The translations under genes were made by a program, and so were the position numbers. From a virus (lineage: Duplodnaviria; Heunggongvirae; Uroviricota; Caudoviricetes), in the IMG/VR virus record IMGVR_UViG_2778261498_000001, positions 1-7,909 of that record: a DNA stretch of 7,909 nt; one strand, 5' to 3'. This document shows, piece by piece, positions 1 through 7,909 of this stretch. Numbering within the stretch: position 1 is the stretch's first letter; each line of letters begins with the position of its first letter. Under the pieces are notes generated by a model. The model had not been told where the DNA came from and did no database searches. It was given only the letters and a program-made list of their open reading frames with translations.

Positions 1-2337
1 GGCGCGCCGTTCCGCTACAGCTTCAGCGCCCTGAAGGACCGCCATAATGCCGTTGAGGTGAACTGGATTGACCCGGACAACGGCTGGGAGACGGCGACAG
101 AGCTTGTGGAGGACACGCAGGCCATTGCCCGTTACGGTCGTAACGTCACGAAGATGGATGCCTTTGGCTGTACCAGTCGGGGGCAGGCACACCGCGCCGG
201 GCTGTGGCTGATTAAAACAGAACTGCTGGAAACGCAGACCGTGGATTTCAGCGTCGGCGCAGAAGGGCTTCGCCATGTACCGGGCGATGTTATTGAAATC
301 TGTGATGATGACTATGCCGGTATCAGCACCGGTGGTCGTGTGCTGGCGGTGAACAGCCAGACCCGGACGCTGACGCTCGACCGTGAAATCACGCTGCCAT
401 CCTCCGGTACCACGCTGATAAGCCTGGTTGACGGAAGTGGCAATCCGGTGAGTGTGGAGGTCCAGTCCGTCACCGACGGCGTGAAGGTGAAAGTGAGCCG
501 GGTTCCTGATGGCGTTGCCGAGTACAGCGTGTGGGGGCTGAAGCTGCCGACGCTGCGCCAGCGCCTGTTCCGCTGCGTGAGTATCCGTGAGAATGACGAC
601 GGCACGTATGCCATCACCGCTGTGCAGCATGTGCCGGAGAAAGAGGCCATCGTGGATAACGGGGCGCACTTTGACGGCGACCAGAGCGGCACGGTGAATG
701 GTGTCACGCCGCCAGCAGTGCAGCACCTGACCGCAGAAGTCACCGCAGACAGCGGGGAATACCAGGTGCTGGCGCGCTGGGATACGCCGAAGGTGGTGAA
801 GGGTGTGAGCTTTATGCTTCGCCTGACCGTGGCAGCGGATGACGGCAGTGAGCGGCTGGTCAGCACGGCCCGGACGACGGAAACCACATACCGATTCACG
901 CAACTGGCGCTGGGAAACTACAGGCTGACAGTCCGGGCGGTAAATGCGTGGGGGCAGCAGGGCGATCCGGCATCGGTATCGTTCCGGATTGCCGCACCTG
1001 CAGTGCCGTCGCGGATTGAGCTGACGCCGGGCTATTTTCAGATAACTGCCACGCCGCATCTTGCGGTTTATGATCCGACGGTACAGTTTGAGTTCTGGTT
1101 CTCGGAAACGCGGATTACCGATATCAGGCAGGTTGAAACCACAGCGCGCTATCTTGGCACGGCGCTGTACTGGATAGCTGCCAGTATCAATATCAGGCCG
1201 GGCCATGATTATTATTTTTACATCCGCAGTGTGAACACCGTTGGCAAATCGGCATTTGTGGAGGCTGTTGGCCAGCCGAGTGATGACGCATCCGGCTATC
1301 TGGATTTTTTCAAAGGAGAGATAGGGAAAACCCATCTGGCTCAGGAGTTGTGGACGCAGATTGATAACGGTCAGCTTGCGCCTGACCTGGCTGAAATCAG
1401 GACGTCCATTACGGGTGTCAGCAATGAAATCACGCAGACCGTCAATAAGAAACTGGAAGACCAGAGTGCAGCGATCCAGCAGATACAGAAGGTTCAGGTT
1501 GATACAAATAATAACCTGAACAGCATGTGGGCTGTGAAGCTGCAGCAGATGCAGGACGGACGCCTTTATATCGCGGGTATCGGTGCCGGTATTGAGAACA
1601 CCCCCGACGGTATGCAGAGTCAGGTGCTGCTGGCGGCAGACAGGATTGCGATGATTAATCCTGCGAATGGCAACACAAAGCCGATGTTTGTTGGTCAGGG
1701 CGATCAGATATTTATGAATGAAGTGTTCCTGAAATATCTGACGGCTCCCACCATTACCAGCGGCGGTAATCCTCCGGCATTTTCCCTGACACCGGACGGG
1801 CGGCTGACGGCAAAAAATGCCGATATCAGCGGTAACGTGAATGCGAACTCCGGGACGCTCAACAACGTCACGATTAACGAGAACTGCCGGGTTCTGGGAA
1901 AACTGTCCGCGAACCAGATTGAAGGTGATCTCGTTAAAACAGTGGGCAAAGCTTTCCCCCGTGACTCCCGTGCACCGGAACGGTGGCCATCAGGGACCAT
2001 TACCGTCAGGGTTTATGACGATCAGCCGTTTGACCGGCAAATTGTTATTCCGGCGGTGGCTTTCAGCGGTGCCAGACATGAACGGGAGAATAGCGATACT
2101 TATTCGTCATGCCGCCTGATAGTGAAGAAAAACGGGGCTGAAATTTATAACCGAACGGCTCTGGATAATACTCTGATTTACACGGGTGTTATTGATATGC
2201 CTGCAGGCAGTGGCGTAATGACACTGGAGTTTTCGGTATCAGCATGGTGGGTAAATGGCTGGTATCCCACAGCAAGTATCAGCGATTTGCTGGTTGTGGT
2301 GATGAAGAAAGCCACCGCAGGCATCAGTATCAGCTGA
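1..2337 (+). CDS. J: Host specificity (central tail fibre / tip) protein J, C-terminal ~779 codons; 5' end lies upstream of the window
   Basis: Frame 1 is open from base 1 to the TGA at 2335-2337, so the ATG at 58 is internal. The translation is long and non-repetitive and matches what I recall of lambda J, including its C-terminal receptor-recognition segment (…[13 protein letters not shown]). Immunoglobulin/fibronectin-like segments also appear, e.g. …[24 protein letters not shown]…. Confidence 0.9.
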
Positions 2338-2356
2338 ATTTTATAACCCCAATACG

Positions 2357-2383
2357 GGCGTCAGAAATGACGCCTTTTTTATT
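2357..2383 (+). terminator. Intrinsic terminator downstream of J
   Basis: Stem GGCGTCA (2357-2363), loop GAAA, stem TGACGCC (2368-2374), followed directly by TTTTTTATT. It starts 20 bp after the J stop codon. Confidence 0.65.
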
Positions 2384-2404
2384 GCAGAAAAGCGAGAGGT
2401 AATT

Positions 2405-3004
2405 ATGCGTAAATTATGTGCTGTTATTCTGTCCGCAGTAGTCTGGCTGGTTGCCGCTGGTACGCCAGCGAGCGCAGCAGAGCATCAGTCCACACTAAGC
2501 GCCGGGTATCTTCAGGCCCATACTGATATGCCAGGCAGTGATGACCTGAAGGGCATTAACGTGAAATACCGTTATGAATTTACGGACACGCTGGGGCTGG
2601 TGACGTCATTCAGTTATGCCAATGCCAAAGATGAGCAAAAAACGCATTACAGCGATACCCGCTGGCATGAAGATTCAGTGCGTAACCGCTGGTTCAGCAT
2701 GATGGCGGGGCCATCTGTACGCGTGAATGAATGGTTCAGTGCTTATGCGATGGCAGGTGTGGCTTACAGCCGTGTTTCGACGTTCTCCGGGGATTATCTC
2801 CGCGTAACTGACAACAAGGGGAAAACGCACGATGTGCTGACCGGAAGTGATGACGATCGCCACAGCAACACGTCTCTGGCGTGGGGAGCTGGCGTGCAGT
2901 TTAACCCGACCGAATCCGTGGCCATTGATATTGCTTATGAAGGCTCCGGCAGTGGCGACTGGCGCACTGACGGTTTCATCGTGGGTGTCGGTTATAAGTT
3001 CTGA
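2405..3004 (+). CDS. lom: Ail/Lom/PagC-family outer membrane beta-barrel protein (lambda Lom homologue)
   Basis: 199-aa ORF with an N-terminal signal peptide (MRKLCAVILSAVVWLVAAGTPASA/AE). Alternating hydrophobic beta-strand pattern and a C-terminal …GSGSGDWRTDGFIVGVGYKF ending in aromatic-X-Phe, as in lambda Lom. GAGAGG Shine-Dalgarno about 7 nt upstream of the ATG. Position between J and stf matches lambda. Confidence 0.9.
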   Translation: MRKLCAVILSAVVWLVAAGTPASAAEHQSTLSAGYLQAHTDMPGSDDLKGINVKYRYEFTDTLGLVTSFSYANAKDEQKTHYSDTRWHEDSVRNRWFSMMAGPSVRVNEWFSAYAMAGVAYSRVSTFSGDYLRVTDNKGKTHDVLTGSDDDRHSNTSLAWGAGVQFNPTESVAIDIAYEGSGSGDWRTDGFIVGVGYKF

Positions 3005-3031
3005 TTAGCCAGGTAACACAGTGTTATGACA

Positions 3032-3060
3032 GCCCGCCGGTTCAGGCGGGCTTTTTTGTG
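3032..3060 (+). terminator. Intrinsic terminator downstream of lom
   Basis: GCCCGCC (3032-3038), loop GGTTCA, GGCGGGC (3045-3051), then TTTTTTGTG. The T-run abuts the Shine-Dalgarno of the next gene. Confidence 0.65.
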
Positions 3061-3068
3061 GAGTGGAT

Positions 3069-5426
3069 ATGGCAGCAGTAAAAATCTCAGGTGTGCTGAA
3101 AGATGGTGCGGGAAAACCAATACAGAACTGCACTATTCAACTGAAGGCAAAGCGTAACAGCACCACGGTACTGGTGAACACGGTGGCCTCTGAAAATCCT
3201 GATGAAGCCGGGCGTTACAGTATGGACGTTGAGTATGGCCAGTACAGCGTCATCCTGCTGGTTGAAGGTTTTCCGCCTTCACATGCCGGGACCATTACCG
3301 TCTATGAAGGTTCCAGTCCGGGGACGCTGAATGATTTTCTCGGTGCCATGACGGAAGATGATGTCATGCCGGAGGCATTGCGTCGTTTTGAGGAAATGGT
3401 GGAAGAAGCGGCACGCAACGCCGAAGCCGCCTCTCAGAGCGCAGCGGCGGCAAAGAAATCCGAAACTGCAGCGGCATCATCGAAGAACGCGGCGAAAACC
3501 TCAGAAACGAATGCAGCTAACAGCGCACAGGCGGCAGCGACCTCACAGACTGCATCGGCAAACTCCGCGACAGCAGCCAAAAAATCAGAAACCAACGCGA
3601 AAAACAGCGAGACAGCCGCAAAGACGAGCGAAACCAACGCAAAGTCCAGCCAGACGGCAGCGAAGACCAGCGAAACGAATGCCAAAGCCAGTGAAACTGC
3701 GGCAAAAAACAGCCAGGTTGCAGCAGCCGAAAGCGAGAGCGCGGCAGCCGGTTCTGCGACTTCAGCAGCTGGATCAGCAACTGCTGCGGCTAACAGCCAG
3801 AAAGCTGCGAAGACGAGTGAAACTAACGCAAAGTCCAGCCAGACGGCAGCGAAGACCAGCGAAACGAATGCCAAAGCCAGCGAAACTGCGGCAAAAAACA
3901 GTCAGGATGCAGCGGCCCAAAGCGAGAGTGCCGCAGCTGGTTCTGCAAGTGCGGCAGCTAATAGCCAAAAAGCTGCAAAAACCAGTGAAACTAACGCAAA
4001 GACGAGTGAAACAAAAGCAGCAGCCAGCAAGACAGAAGCAACGTCAGCCGCAACAAGAGCAGAGAATGCAGCCCGGATTGCAGAAGATGCCGCTGATCCT
4101 GCTTCTGTCCCTCCGCTTCCTGATATCTGGCTACCCTTGAATGATTCTCTGGAAGCGATAACAGGGTATGCCCCGGGCTATAAAACAATAACCATCGGCA
4201 GTGATGAAATCACTGTACCTGTTAATGGCATATGCCAATTTAGCCGCGCTTCATCAGCAACTTATATTGATAAGTCCGGGCATATTACCGTAGCAGGTAA
4301 TAACGTTCCTCGTTTTGAAAAATATGGTTTGCTGATAGAGAATCAGCGAACAAACATGTTCGTAAATAGTTTTAATCCTGATGCGTGGAATAAAAGCGGT
4401 GGTATATCTGTAACATCATCAACAGATGAATTTGAGTTTAAATATGGACGTTTCACAGTAGGAAGTGAGATAGCAGGAACGACAACAGGGAGAAATATAT
4501 GCACAGTTGCTGGTAATAAAGGCATAGATGTGACTGGCGATGATCAATACAGTAAAGGTCCGTATGTTACCGCGTCGTTCAGGGTAAGAAGTGATCTCAA
4601 TGTTCGCGCACGTATCCGTTTTGAAGGGTATAACTCGGAAGGATACACTTTCCTTTGTGACGCCTATTTGTCATTACAGACTCATGAACTACAAATTACG
4701 GGTGGTAATGCCCAGCTATTAACAGCAAACTTTGAAATCGACCCTGGTAGTGGATGGATATATTTTCAGGCAACACTGAAATGTCTGCCAGAATGGGGAA
4801 TGGTTGGTACGCAGCTGCAAATTGCAGCCGACAGAGCAGTGGGGGCTTTTGCAACAGGTGACTGGATAGAAGTAACCACCCCGCAATTCGAGTATGGTGC
4901 CTGTGCAACTTCCTTTATCATAACGACAACAGAGCCAGCGACTCGTGCATCAGATTTATGTAAATTTCCGCTGATGAAAAATATGTATACCATGCCTTTT
5001 ACGTTCATGGTGGAAGTCCATAAAAACTGGTTTATTTCTCATAATGCTGCACCGCGAGTAATTGATACAGAAAACCATCAGTCAGGTGCTCCATTTATCA
5101 TGGGATTTGGCTCTTCTGGAACTATCAGTCAGGACGGTTATCCCTATTGTGATATAGGCGGGGCTAACCGACGTGTATATGAGTCATGCGGAGTAAGAGA
5201 TCTCGTTATGGGATTCAGGGTTAAGGCTGACGGCATGACATGCTCATTTGCAAATAAGCATATAAGCACAGAAACAAAAACAGTATGGAAATATATTCGT
5301 GAAGCTGCTGTGATTCGTATCGGGGGACAAACGACGACAGGATTACGACACCTTAATGGTCATATAAAAAACCTCCGTTTCTGGAACAGAGCATTGTCAG
5401 ATACGCAGCTTAAGGAATACGTATAA
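3069..5426 (+). CDS. stf: Mosaic side tail fibre protein: lambda Stf-like N-terminal domain, Ala/Ser/Thr-rich repeat shaft, and an unrelated lower-G+C C-terminal domain (possibly concanavalin-A/LamG-like)
   Basis: N-terminus MAAVKISGVLKDGAGKPIQNCTIQLKAKRNSTTVLVNTVASENPDEAGRYSMDVEYGQYSVILLVEGFPPSHAGTITVYEGS… matches my recollection of lambda Stf. GGAG lies 6 nt upstream of the ATG at 3069; the ORF track's GTG at 3063 is in frame but less likely. The C-terminal ~445 residues differ in composition and end in …LRHLNGHIKNLRFWNRALSDTQLKEYV, which resembles the terminal strand of LamG/ConA-like jelly-roll domains. The His-rich HxH motifs of the lambda Stf C-terminus are absent. Confidence 0.85.
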   Translation: MAAVKISGVLKDGAGKPIQNCTIQLKAKRNSTTVLVNTVASENPDEAGRYSMDVEYGQYSVILLVEGFPPSHAGTITVYEGSSPGTLNDFLGAMTEDDVMPEALRRFEEMVEEAARNAEAASQSAAAAKKSETAAASSKNAAKTSETNAANSAQAAATSQTASANSATAAKKSETNAKNSETAAKTSETNAKSSQTAAKTSETNAKASETAAKNSQVAAAESESAAAGSATSAAGSATAAANSQKAAKTSETNAKSSQTAAKTSETNAKASETAAKNSQDAAAQSESAAAGSASAAANSQKAAKTSETNAKTSETKAAASKTEATSAATRAENAARIAEDAADPASVPPLPDIWLPLNDSLEAITGYAPGYKTITIGSDEITVPVNGICQFSRASSATYIDKSGHITVAGNNVPRFEKYGLLIENQRTNMFVNSFNPDAWNKSGGISVTSSTDEFEFKYGRFTVGSEIAGTTTGRNICTVAGNKGIDVTGDDQYSKGPYVTASFRVRSDLNVRARIRFEGYNSEGYTFLCDAYLSLQTHELQITGGNAQLLTANFEIDPGSGWIYFQATLKCLPEWGMVGTQLQIAADRAVGAFATGDWIEVTTPQFEYGACATSFIITTTEPATRASDLCKFPLMKNMYTMPFTFMVEVHKNWFISHNAAPRVIDTENHQSGAPFIMGFGSSGTISQDGYPYCDIGGANRRVYESCGVRDLVMGFRVKADGMTCSFANKHISTETKTVWKYIREAAVIRIGGQTTTGLRHLNGHIKNLRFWNRALSDTQLKEYV
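3572..4010. repeat. Nested in-frame tandem repeats inside stf: 42-bp (14-aa) units inside a 189-bp (63-aa) higher-order repeat
   Basis: Peptide units AAK(T/K)SETNAK(S/A/N/T)S(Q/E)T recur many times. At DNA level, 3621-3651 (aagacgagcgaaaccaacgcaaagtccagcc) recurs at 3810-3840 (aagacgagtgaaactaacgcaaagtccagcc), an offset of exactly 189 bp, with near-identity continuing for over 120 bp. Confidence 0.8.
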
Positions 5427-5695
5427 TGCGGGATATAACATTACGATTCGATAACAGAGAACAGTTTAACGCAATTGTATATGACAGTGGCCTGTTCAGT
5501 CTTGAAGAAGAAAATGGGGTTCTTGTTGATGTTATTGGCTGCATTATTGATTACGAGGAGCCAGAAAACGAAAGATGTACAGGCATTGATCGCGGTGGTT
5601 TTTTCGTAAACATGAGGATTGTTGATGGCAGTAAAAACATATCTTCTTTAATGCCTTTCATTACGACAGATCAGCATGTAAGGACATGGGCTTAA
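5426..5695 (+). CDS. Hypothetical 89-aa acidic protein, translationally coupled to stf; function unknown (possibly fibre-associated chaperone or adaptor)
   Basis: The ATG overlaps the stf stop codon by one base (TAATG at 5424-5428). AAGGAA Shine-Dalgarno at 5412-5417, 8 nt upstream. Non-repetitive sequence with the same low G+C as its neighbours. The next gene starts 12 bp after its stop. I recognise no family. Confidence 0.55.
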   Translation: MRDITLRFDNREQFNAIVYDSGLFSLEEENGVLVDVIGCIIDYEEPENERCTGIDRGGFFVNMRIVDGSKNISSLMPFITTDQHVRTWA

Positions 5696-5707
5696 TGGAG
5701 TAAGACA

Positions 5708-6748
5708 ATGGTTACAAAAACAGTAATTCCTGATGACATCAAAACGCTAAAATCCGATGTTAGTAAACTACAAAACGATCAAGGAAGCTACGCAACAAAA
5801 TCATATGTAGACAGCAAAGATGAAACCGTTGGTGACTGGTCTGCTTCATGGTATCAGCAGGTATTGCCAACTAGCGGAGCTATATTTGGGCGAAAACTTC
5901 GCTCAACTCACAGGACGGCAGGTGTTGAGGATGCGTATTGCGAACTATACCTTAAAAAATGGATAGACAGTCCAGGGAACGCAATGGCGCGCCTTAACCT
6001 GAACGATAACGGTGAAAATATTTGCTGGGATTTTACCAACCTTTACGGCGGAACAATGATCTTCCCTGGTACTTCAGGTTATCTGAAAATGGGGAACTGT
6101 CTCATGTCGTATGGTGTGCGGGGAAGTAACGCGCTTATTAAGTTTGATAATACAGACACATTACAAATCAAATACGCTAATCATGGGTCAACCATGACAT
6201 TAAACACGCAAGGTACGGCGTATTCTGGTGTGTCGACGTTATTATGGGGAAATTCCAGTCGTCCAGTTGTTTATGAAATTAGGGATGATGGCGGGCTTTT
6301 TTTGTTTTATGCACAAAGGAACCCAGATAAAACCTATCAGCTTGAGATAAACGGGCCATGCAAGGCAACATCATTCGACCAGGTGTCGGACAGAGATCTT
6401 AAAGAAAACATTCAGGTTATTGATAATGCCACTGAGCGCATCAGATTAATGAATGGGTATACTTACCGTCTCAAGTCTAATGGTATGCCTTATGCTGGCG
6501 TTATTGCGCAAGAGGCACTTAATGCAATCCCTGAATCAGTTGGTAGCACAATAAAGTACAAGAGCGGGGACAATGGGTCTGATGGAGAAGAGGGAGAAAG
6601 ATACTATACCGTCGATTACTCAGGCGTAACGGGTTTGCTTGTTCAGGTAGCCAGAGAGTCAGACGACAGGATAACAGCACTGGAAGAAGAAAACGCAGAA
6701 TTAAGACAAAGATTATCTGCAATTGAGGCGGCGCTTGCGTCTAAATAA
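5708..6748 (+). CDS. Tail fibre / tail spike-like protein with a C-terminal intramolecular chaperone, autoproteolytic (peptidase S74-type) domain
   Basis: GGAG at 5697-5700, 7 nt upstream of the ATG. The C-terminal ~120 aa carry what I recognise as S74 hallmarks: …QV-SDRDLKENI… (Ser codon at 6386-6388; Ser/Lys dyad at the predicted self-cleavage site), …YAGVIAQEALNAIPE…, …YTVDYSGVTGLLVQVARE…, and a terminal heptad-like helix ITALEEENAELRQRLSAIEAALA. The N-terminal ~226 aa look like a short helical stretch followed by a beta-rich globular domain. Confidence 0.8.
   Translation: MVTKTVIPDDIKTLKSDVSKLQNDQGSYATKSYVDSKDETVGDWSASWYQQVLPTSGAIFGRKLRSTHRTAGVEDAYCELYLKKWIDSPGNAMARLNLNDNGENICWDFTNLYGGTMIFPGTSGYLKMGNCLMSYGVRGSNALIKFDNTDTLQIKYANHGSTMTLNTQGTAYSGVSTLLWGNSSRPVVYEIRDDGGLFLFYAQRNPDKTYQLEINGPCKATSFDQVSDRDLKENIQVIDNATERIRLMNGYTYRLKSNGMPYAGVIAQEALNAIPESVGSTIKYKSGDNGSDGEEGERYYTVDYSGVTGLLVQVARESDDRITALEEENAELRQRLSAIEAALASK
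6386..6745 (+). other. Predicted S74-type intramolecular chaperone domain, expected to be released by self-cleavage N-terminal to the Ser encoded at 6386-6388
   Basis: Motif SDRDLKENI plus the downstream conserved blocks described for the fibre-like CDS. Domain boundary is from motif position only. Confidence 0.65.
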
Positions 6749-6754
6749 TATTAA

Positions 6755-6778
6755 GGGGCCGAGCGCCCCGTTTTATTG
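6755..6778 (+). terminator. Possible weak intrinsic terminator between the fibre-like gene and the membrane-protein gene
   Basis: GGGGC (6755-6759), loop CGAGC, GCCCC (6765-6769), then GTTTTATT. The stem is short and the T-run is interrupted. Confidence 0.4.
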
Positions 6779-6790
6779 GGTAGGATGAAA

Positions 6791-7078
6791 ATGGATATAA
6801 CACCTTTCCTTCATGCGCTTTGTGCTGTGGCTGCGCAGCTACTGATTGGTCTTTTTACCGGGAACTGGGCTTACGGAGCGATAGCCGGTTGTACGTTCTT
6901 CATTGCGCGTGAACACACCCAGGCAGAATATCGCTGGATTGAAATGTTCGGGCATGGCAAGCGGATTAACATGCCGTGGTGGGGTGGTTTTGATCCACGT
7001 GCATGGGATGTGGCAAGCCTGATGGATTTTGCTGTGCCGGTGGTGGCGTGTCTGCTGATCTGGATGTTGATCCGTTAA
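6791..7078 (+). CDS. Small integral membrane protein (~95 aa, about three predicted transmembrane helices), unknown function; candidate prophage cargo gene
   Basis: Hydrophobic segments FLHALCAVAAQLLIGLFTG, WAYGAIAGCTFFIA and VASLMDFAVPVVACLLIWMLI. AGGA at 6782-6785, 5 nt upstream of the ATG at 6791; in-frame alternatives are ATG 6785 and the ORF track's TTG 6776. No lipobox. G+C is higher than the preceding two genes. It is the last gene before the att arm. Confidence 0.6.
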   Translation: MDITPFLHALCAVAAQLLIGLFTGNWAYGAIAGCTFFIAREHTQAEYRWIEMFGHGKRINMPWWGGFDPRAWDVASLMDFAVPVVACLLIWMLIR

Positions 7079-7095
7079 ATATAAAAAGTAAAAAG

Positions 7096-7127
7096 CCGCA
7101 GTAACTTGTCATGACAGGATACTGCGG
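7096..7127. other. 32-bp near-perfect palindrome 18 bp after the membrane-protein stop; terminator hairpin or protein-binding site
   Basis: CCGCAGTAACTTGTCA | TGACAGGATACTGCGG pairs at 15 of 16 positions (one A/A mismatch, one G-T wobble). Followed by TTGGCTGGTT, so no clean U-tract. Confidence 0.4.
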
Positions 7128-7341
7128 TTGGCTGGTTAACTTTCGATAGTGCGAGTATTGAATAATTTCCAGCCGTTACCGATTTTATATAACTGCAGTG
7201 GAATTATTCAACACACAGGCAAAACGGAATAAGCTGAGAAAAAAGCGTGCTTTCCCAATCTGGGGCAAATCACGTCTGAATGACACCTGAAAACAGGTGG
7301 TGGACTCAAGAAGGCTTGGAATATTCTTCTTTAATGTTATG

Positions 7342-7354
7342 TAATTCATTGATT
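7342..7354 (-). promoter_or_regulatory. IHF-consensus match in the presumptive attR P-arm
   Basis: TAATTCATTGATT fits YAANNNNTTGATW exactly (complement of WATCAANNNNTTR). It overlaps the first copy of the direct repeat TTGATTTTTCG (7349-7359). Confidence 0.4.
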
Positions 7355-7396
7355 TTTCGTGTACGATTTTAAGACATTTATTCCAAGAAAAATTTT

Positions 7397-7409
7397 TAAC
7401 TCTTTGATT
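7397..7409 (-). promoter_or_regulatory. Second IHF-consensus match in the presumptive attR P-arm
   Basis: TAACTCTTTGATT fits YAANNNNTTGATW exactly. It overlaps the second copy of TTGATTTTTCG (7404-7414), 55 bp from the first and about 20 bp from the tRNA-derived core. Confidence 0.4.
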
Positions 7410-7426
7410 TTTCGACTCTGTATCAT

Positions 7427-7488
7427 CGGTCTCGAAAACCGGAGTAGGGGCAACTCTACCGGGGGTTCAAATCCCCCTCTCTCCGCCA
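7427..7488 (+). tRNA. Partial tRNA-Ser(CGA) gene, 3' portion only (anticodon arm through CCA); presumptive att core / prophage-host junction
   Basis: CGGT-CTCGAAA-ACCGG (anticodon loop with CGA), long variable arm AGTAGGGGCAACTCTACC (class II tRNA), T-arm GGGGG-TTCAAAT-CCCCC, then acceptor 3' strand TCTCTCC-G-CCA. No complementary 5' acceptor strand (GGAGAGA) or D-arm exists upstream, so it is a fragment. It matches my recollection of the E. coli serU 3' half. Confidence 0.75.
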
Positions 7489-7770
7489 CTTTATCAATGA
7501 CTTATCTCCCGACTTCCCGCCTTGCTTTTCCTAAACAGAACAATCGTAGAATATTCTTGAAGGGTTAGATCGTCACTGTTTTCTGTTCGATACTGTGACA
7601 TTCAGCACTTGATTCGCTATGGATCTGACAGGAAGGTTTCGAGCGAAAATCTGCAATTATTCAGTCGTTTTCTTATCGGTCACCATTATTCTTTTAGACA
7701 TTGATCCTACAAAGCTGCCGCAAAGTTGGTGGTGGGAACTGAAGTTGCGTAGAGAAGGGGTCAATAATTG

Positions 7771-7809
7771 AGCAAAAAAAGGAACGCGGCCGTCAGATTA
7801 AAGCCGCGG
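7771..7809 (-). terminator. Possible intrinsic terminator on the minus strand in the flank
   Basis: On the minus strand: CGCGGC, a 12-nt loop, GCCGCG, then TTCCTTTTTTTGCTC. The stem is GC-rich with a strong T-run; the loop is long. Confidence 0.4.
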
Positions 7810-7909
7810 GACAAAGTCCATAATTTCCAAGAGTTGTTGAATTTCCCAGCTTTTTTGAAAGCCTTTGTATCATACTAACAAGTAAAAAAGGTTTAAATAC
7901 CAAAATTAA

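Follow-up and report, generated by a model that had tools for sequence, protein, structure and literature searches.

The tRNA-Ser(CGA) gene serU is an established integration site for mobile elements in Escherichia coli. It is the insertion site of prophage Sp14 of O157:H7 Sakai (PMC8190617), a lambdoid prophage locus in STEC O145:H28 and O121:H19 (PMC7067040, PMC8767318), and the site of an island of UPEC and EPEC that carries H-NST/Hfp (PMC7074111). In the general arrangement, the element lies 3' of a regenerated tRNA gene, with int adjoining that gene and the displaced 3' fragment of the original gene at the far end (PMC4383910; bioRxiv 10.1101/2020.11.02.365908). The regenerated target and the displaced fragment mark the two ends of an island, and the class of attP centred on the anticodon is a common one (PMC4383910).

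We analysed a stretch of 7,909 nucleotides (positions 1 to 7,909 of the IMG/VR virus record IMGVR_UViG_2778261498_000001), which we call the window. We conclude, with a probability of about 95%, that its positions 7427-7488 are the attR core of a lambdoid prophage integrated into E. coli serU. A serU attR scar is an already known, ordinary feature. Judged by the published insertion sites, the prophage resembles Sp14 and the STEC serU prophages in its target gene and in the lambdoid architecture int-xis ... J-lom-stf-attR, and the attL junction is 100% identical in the O157:H7 genome H87. It differs from other serU prophages in that cargo and structural modules are mosaic; head, terminase and immunity regions differ even among the three genomes used below as surrogates. 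The serU island with H-NST/Hfp shares the same tRNA gene, but in the window CCA is followed instead by a flank of the K-12 type. ST64B of Salmonella and phages of Klebsiella and Citrobacter contain matches of 77-84 bp to the serU-type 3' segment, at 82-95% identity. These matches are consistent, at the sequence level, with an attP core for the orthologous tRNA; the arms differ, so that only the core is similar, and the integrases are presumably different.

The 62 bases at 7427-7488 (+), CGGTCTCGAAAACCGGAGTAGGGGCAACTCTACCGGGGGTTCAAATCCCCCTCTCTCCGCCA, are identical at 62 of 62 positions to nucleotides 29-90 of K-12 serU, a 90-nt gene, and span it from the anticodon stem to CCA. No other match to the 62-mer occurs in the window when up to three mismatches are allowed, and 200 shuffled sequences yielded none. 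When the fold is mapped onto the plus strand, four of the five bases of the 5' strand of the anticodon stem fall at 7427-7430 and the 3' strand at 7438-7442; between them, with the stem inverted repeat on both sides, is the 7-nt anticodon loop (7431-7437) with the anticodon CGA at 7433-7435. The long variable arm follows at 7444-7459, and the T arm, the 3' strand of the acceptor and CCA extend from there to 7488. The 28-nt 5' half of serU is absent from the whole window, even with three mismatches allowed, the window gives no ARAGORN tRNA call, and no cloverleaf appears in the fold of the 90 nt ending at 7488. These three results rule out a complete or non-canonical tRNA at this position. The complete cloverleaf of a functional tRNA gene, with acceptor stem and D arm, is missing, and the 62-base fragment is not a gene. 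The preliminary description had recognized here the elements of a class II tRNA-Ser from the anticodon arm to CCA lacking a 5' half; the identity to serU and the missing 5' half bear this out, and ARAGORN did not find the complete tRNA with a non-canonical 5' half that would have contradicted it.

Rfam searches of 7000-7909 at E values up to 10 returned only partial matches to the T arm or variable arm, all under the gathering scores; these were to a plastid 3'UTR model (on the opposite strand), tmRNA and sX4, and they add nothing beyond the statement that this is the 3' part of something tRNA-like. A promoter and terminator scan of 6700-7909 gave counts at the level of shuffled sequence, with no hit associated with the fragment.

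To the right, the alignment with the uninterrupted serU locus, which had been proposed as a check, runs without a break: over 7427-7909, 471 of the 483 positions agree with K-12 without a gap, and the mismatches are confined to the part beyond 7626. Because of this collinearity we read 7489 onward as the sequence of the unoccupied serU site, and we assign 7489..7909 (+) to the B' arm, that is, the host chromosome 3' of serU toward yodB and zinT, since the ungapped match to the unoccupied K-12 site reaches the end of the window. Downstream, zinT, msrQP, hiuH and hprRS are found in junction-sharing genomes (L001 and L030). The fragment is thus flanked as an attR is, with lambdoid J-lom-stf to its left and, to its right, the DNA that natively lies downstream of serU.

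Some other features of this flank were observed. The distance from the fragment to zinT is about 670 bp in CE0007a and ST131 strain 2822 (L001 6190-6858; L030 47502-48170), as against 1443 bp in K-12; no yodB is annotated in these two genomes, and the gene appears to be absent from their lineages. A 50-aa ORF starting with ATG at 7619-7771 (+) is open in K-12 as well. By a hand count from the alignment, about eight of the nine substitutions between window and K-12 in this ORF are non-synonymous, and on that account it is probably not a gene. The idea that the B' flank derives by decay from a P' arm or an integrase gene was considered as well and rejected: when the flanks of K-12 and of the window were searched by tblastn with the integrase and by short-word blastn with P' plus int, no match was significant (best E = 0.12 and 0.03, both tiny matches).

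The DNA to the left of the fragment is the right arm of a lambdoid prophage. All its genes are on the plus strand. The C-terminal part of the tail-tip protein J occupies 1..2337, identified from its ORF, from gpJ in collinear genomes and from phage matches; the gene continues past the left edge of the window. It is followed by lom (2405..3004), an ORF for a 199-aa outer-membrane protein of the Ail/Lom family that is annotated as such in L001, L004 and L030, and by the side tail fibre gene stf (3063..5426), an uninterrupted 787-aa ORF with a match to PF08400 (Prophage tail fibre N-terminal, E = 1.5e-66). A 346-aa protein with a tail-fibre domain (5708..6748) carries the Peptidase_S74 intramolecular chaperone domain (PF13884, E = 2.4e-12) and is annotated as 'tail fiber domain-containing protein' in junction-sharing genomes. 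After this gene come small ORFs and then about 350 bp of non-coding DNA. Internal repeats were seen in stf, where 3603-3851 and 3792-4001 of the window match overlapping targets. In GN02100 (L004 40691-43048) stf is annotated as two partial pseudogene pieces, whereas that of the window is uninterrupted; since GN02100 is 100% identical over the stf stretch, the split is probably, judging by this identity, an annotation artefact.

The window is too short to contain the far end of the prophage, and we therefore used three complete genomes that share the junction as surrogates: GN02100, ST131 strain 2822 and CE0007a. GN02100 is 100% identical to window positions 1-7488, the match ending exactly at 7488 with a different island beyond; ST131 strain 2822 is collinear with the entire window at 98%; and CE0007a is 99.8% identical to 7300-7909, across the junction. 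Within the collection searched, no complete genome matches the whole window at 100%; the best matches reach 98% when the full length is counted and 100% for 1-7488. All three surrogates have the same gene order, consisting of mtfA, an intact tRNA-Ser(CGA) gene on the strand of the fragment, 27 bp, a tyrosine integrase gene on the opposite strand, a gene for a DUF4224 protein, and the rest of the prophage. The intact serU lies 40-44 kb to the left of the fragment in each of them, and ARAGORN calls the GN02100 copy (L004) as tRNA-Ser(cga). The preliminary description had predicted just this, an intact tRNA-Ser(CGA) gene in the same orientation next to an integrase at the left end, and the prediction was realized in all three surrogates. 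Its wider claim, that the fragment is the int-distal junction left by a tRNA-targeting integrase, is sustained by the K-12 flank, by these far ends and by the matching attP described below. Both junctions are frequent: among 5426 complete E. coli genomes, attR was found in 945 and the serU/int attL in 1147.

The ORF adjoining serU in GN02100 is intact, encodes 341 aa, and contains a tyrosine recombinase catalytic domain (PF00589, E = 1.7e-11) together with PF22022 and PF14659 (SAM-like and central integrase domains); an N-terminal arm-binding domain was not among the Pfam hits for this protein. PGAP, the annotation pipeline of NCBI, labels the serU integrase as 'frameshifted' in all three genomes (L004 963-2013 (−); L002 14769-15819; L030 7931-8981), although the 341-aa ORF with the catalytic domain is intact. 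The usual box of tyrosine integrases is HxxR; the conserved box of this one reads HDLK. The tandem CTTGGAAT repeats of the P' arm double as the coding sequence for the C-terminal residues PENIPRKYSK of the integrase. Another feature of the serU prophages, outside the stretch covered by the window, is a tRNA gene cluster located between Q and the lysis genes, with three or four members (Ile, Lys, Thr, Gly; L002 30354-30663; L004 16665-16974; L030 20934-21243).

A scan of IMG/VR with the joint between P arm and core found this joint in 23 contigs, in which three classes of sequence follow CCA: the flank of K-12, giving attR as in the window; some other island; and the integrase-side arm. The last class, where the core is followed by the integrase-side arm to form P-O-P', is represented by contigs L014, L016 and L023, and the phage DNA that these contigs have in common with the window to the left of the core defines the P arm at 7236..7426 (+). 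The P-O-P' joints of these three contigs may instead be joints of tandem lysogens rather than attP. Two GenBank phages with the same integrase, vB_EcoS-689R5 and vB_EcoM-606R7, were tried as an attP source and set aside; because they include the host serU 5' half, they are prophage cut-outs and not attP. The set of four sites is complete and of the textbook pattern, consisting of attB in K-12 (B-O-B'), attP in L014, L016 and L023 (P-O-P'), attL in CE0007a, GN02100 and ST131 strain 2822 (B-O-P'), and attR in the window (P-O-B').

The identity block shared by attP and attB opens at gene position 29, where the anticodon stem has its second base. Of the 62 positions, phage and host cores disagree at two (60/62 identical), the phage having G for A at gene position 48 and C for T at 59. 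In the fold, 48 and 59 form a base pair of the variable arm, so that the phage G..C allele is a compensatory change; the host and phage versions fold alike. In each of the 24 copies the allele goes with the right-hand arm, all six copies followed by P' carrying G..C and all 18 followed by B' carrying A..T. The identity block of the window (7427..7488, +), made up of the 3' 62 nt of serU, has A at 7446 and T at 7457, and hence the host allele; it is counted among the B' copies. Because the alleles track the right-hand arm without exception, we place strand exchange in the anticodon stem-loop at 7427..7445 (+), an interval limited on the left by the start of identity and on the right by the first segregating polymorphism, within which the exact cleavage positions would lie.

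It follows from the position of the crossover that host DNA starts inside the fragment, at 7446 at the latest, rather than at 7489. The earlier statement that 7489 onward is host flank stands as far as it goes, given the collinearity with K-12, but was slightly too conservative in its boundary, as the segregation of the alleles shows. It follows likewise that the working serU of the lysogen is a host/phage chimera; chimeric genes with G48 and C59 adjoin the integrase at L002 14652-14741, L004 846-935 and L030 7814-7903. By its sequence limits the crossover interval would correspond to the anticodon-centred attP class of Islander. Anticodon-centred, class 'A', tRNA-gene attachment sites of tyrosine integrases were reportedly described by Williams in 2002, and from these the present site differs in nothing substantive, cleavage here being bounded to the interval just given.

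Several elements near the core are candidates for a role in recombination. The expected number of copies of the 8-mer CTTGGAAT in the window is 0.25; it has two, both in the P arm, and the P' arm has a further three in tandem. The two P-arm copies, at 7315..7322 (+) and, inverted and within inverted repeat I3, at 7380..7387 (−), are by their recurrence candidate arm-type Int-binding sites. The IHF consensus WATCAANNNNTTR has three matches in the entire window, none of them farther than about 85 bp from the core; a rough chance expectation would be about 0.24. Two of them are putative IHF sites in the P arm, at 7342..7354 (−) and 7397..7409 (−), in the two copies of direct repeat D2; the third lies in host DNA directly 3' of CCA, at 7492..7504 (+), and is similar at 10 of 12 positions to the same position of the P' arm. 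This host-flank match, TATCAATGACTTA, is a perfect one, and it resembles both TTCAATCACTTA at the same position in the phage P' arm and AATCAATCACTTA in the island arm. About 60 nt past CCA, GAATATTCTT at 7549-7558 repeats a 10-mer of the P-arm site at 7319-7328. The DUF4224 gene sits upstream of int, in the position of an excisionase gene. Taken together, the arm sites, the IHF sites and the DUF4224 protein suggest, as a prediction from sequence, an intasome in the style of lambda.

The attB of lambda is intergenic, between gal and bio, and its identity block is 15 bp. The serU system is like the Int/attP/IHF/Xis system of lambda in that a tyrosine recombinase gene adjoins attP, repeated candidate arm sites are present in both arms, sites with the IHF consensus are present in the P arm, and a small putative excision factor is encoded upstream of int. 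It is unlike lambda in its tRNA-gene target, in its identity block of 62 bp (60/62), in having a DUF4224 protein as putative excision factor, and in that protein binding is here a prediction.

The course of events that we propose starts from a phage attP containing a 62-bp copy of the serU 3' end that differs from the host at two mutually pairing positions. The phage tyrosine integrase recombined this attP with serU as attB, with the exchange in or adjacent to the anticodon loop; Int would bind the arm-type CTTGGAAT sites, IHF would bend the arms, and the DUF4224 protein may act as the excision factor. At the int-proximal junction an intact chimeric serU was regenerated from the host 5' part and the phage 3' part. 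The int-distal junction, captured in the window, consists of the P arm, a few core bases, the original 3' part of the host serU and its native flank, and the fragment would be one of the two substrates for Int/Xis-mediated excision.

An objection to this interpretation is that the fragment might be a fossil attR, riding as passenger DNA in the b region of some lambdoid prophage whose own insertion site is not serU, in which case 7489 onward would be phage-borne. Such joints do exist: the free phages ev099, mEp332 and PhiR70_1 hold window positions 7232-7766 at 98-99% identity, and the same joint is found in 524 of 5426 E. coli genomes (~10%), the copy of NCTC9064 lying in a decayed prophage near dsdA/intS. 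However, the phage copies part from the window at 7766, whereas the collinearity of the window with the K-12 serU flank continues to 7909, and for this reason we dismiss the possibility that 7489 onward is phage-borne. Moreover, in genomes with a junction of the window type, the flank leads on to zinT-msrQP, and serU plus int are found at the opposite end. The divergence at 7766 and the continuation into zinT in junction-sharing genomes lead us to reject a fossil attR for the window, and we regard it as very improbable.

A truncated tRNA pseudogene, in which a deletion or rearrangement had removed the 5' half of serU with no site-specific recombination, would account for the window taken by itself, where just a 5'-truncated tRNA is visible. 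It would not account for a left breakpoint that coincides exactly with the attP boundary between P arm and core in 23 viral contigs and 945 genomes, nor for the intact serU at the other end of the prophage in related genomes, the existence of P-O-P' joints, or alleles that segregate as predicted for reciprocal recombination. This explanation is effectively refuted, and the chance that it is correct is negligible. We give scarcely any credence, either, to the proposal that the fragment is a functional small RNA of phage or host, a transcript resembling a tRNA half that is under selection for an activity of its own. The anticodon, variable and T hairpins are retained, and they are conserved even in free phages, as that proposal would have it; yet the scan gave no promoter-like site upstream on the plus strand, no Rfam family scored above threshold, and the conservation is fully accounted for by the role of the segment as att core and by recent common descent. 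Integration of a lambdoid prophage into serU, with attR at 7427-7488, is accordingly the reading that we retain.

The fossil attR of the free lambdoid phages consists of the P arm, a serU fragment with the host allele and 278 bp of K-12-type serU flank. It forms a 535-bp module that corresponds to window positions 7232-7766 and is found at 8370-8904 of ev099 (L006), 8623-9157 of mEp332 (L005), 46157-46445 of PhiR70_1 and ~9001-9535 of L031. In the phages the module lies in the b region, upstream of a gene of the AraC family, of IS remnants and of a different int/xis pair; the fossil copy stops at 7766, immediately ahead of the stop codon of the 50-aa ORF. The module looks like host DNA captured via imprecise excision or recombination. 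That it is more than a passive scar of imprecise excision, and has been kept because it is functional, seems to us unlikely; it could in that case serve as a secondary attachment or homology site for recombining into occupied or empty serU loci, or it could carry a regulatory element. A related and likewise unlikely possibility is that what counts as 'host' flank 3' of serU in E. coli is the remnant of an ancient element; this is suggested by B', which has both an IHF-consensus match and an arm-like motif, GAATATTCTT.

A second kind of element was seen next to the fragment. In GN02100, CCA is followed (L004 45111 onward) by another island, with DUF6387, HTH and H-NS-family genes, and the same island adjoins CCA in eight IMG/VR contigs, including L009, L011, L013, L017, L018, L024 and L027. 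The island-followed copies of L013 and L024 carry the G..C allele of the phage type. This arrangement agrees with a tandem insertion of the published serU island beside the prophage.

The finding brings no scientific novelty, as the signature of a displaced 3' fragment is textbook knowledge and is used by tools such as Islander. It does show that what the preliminary description drew from the letters of the window was trustworthy. For the prophage itself, the right boundary is now fixed to the base, and the two substrates of excision are identified, which is useful for prophage delineation and for strain typing.
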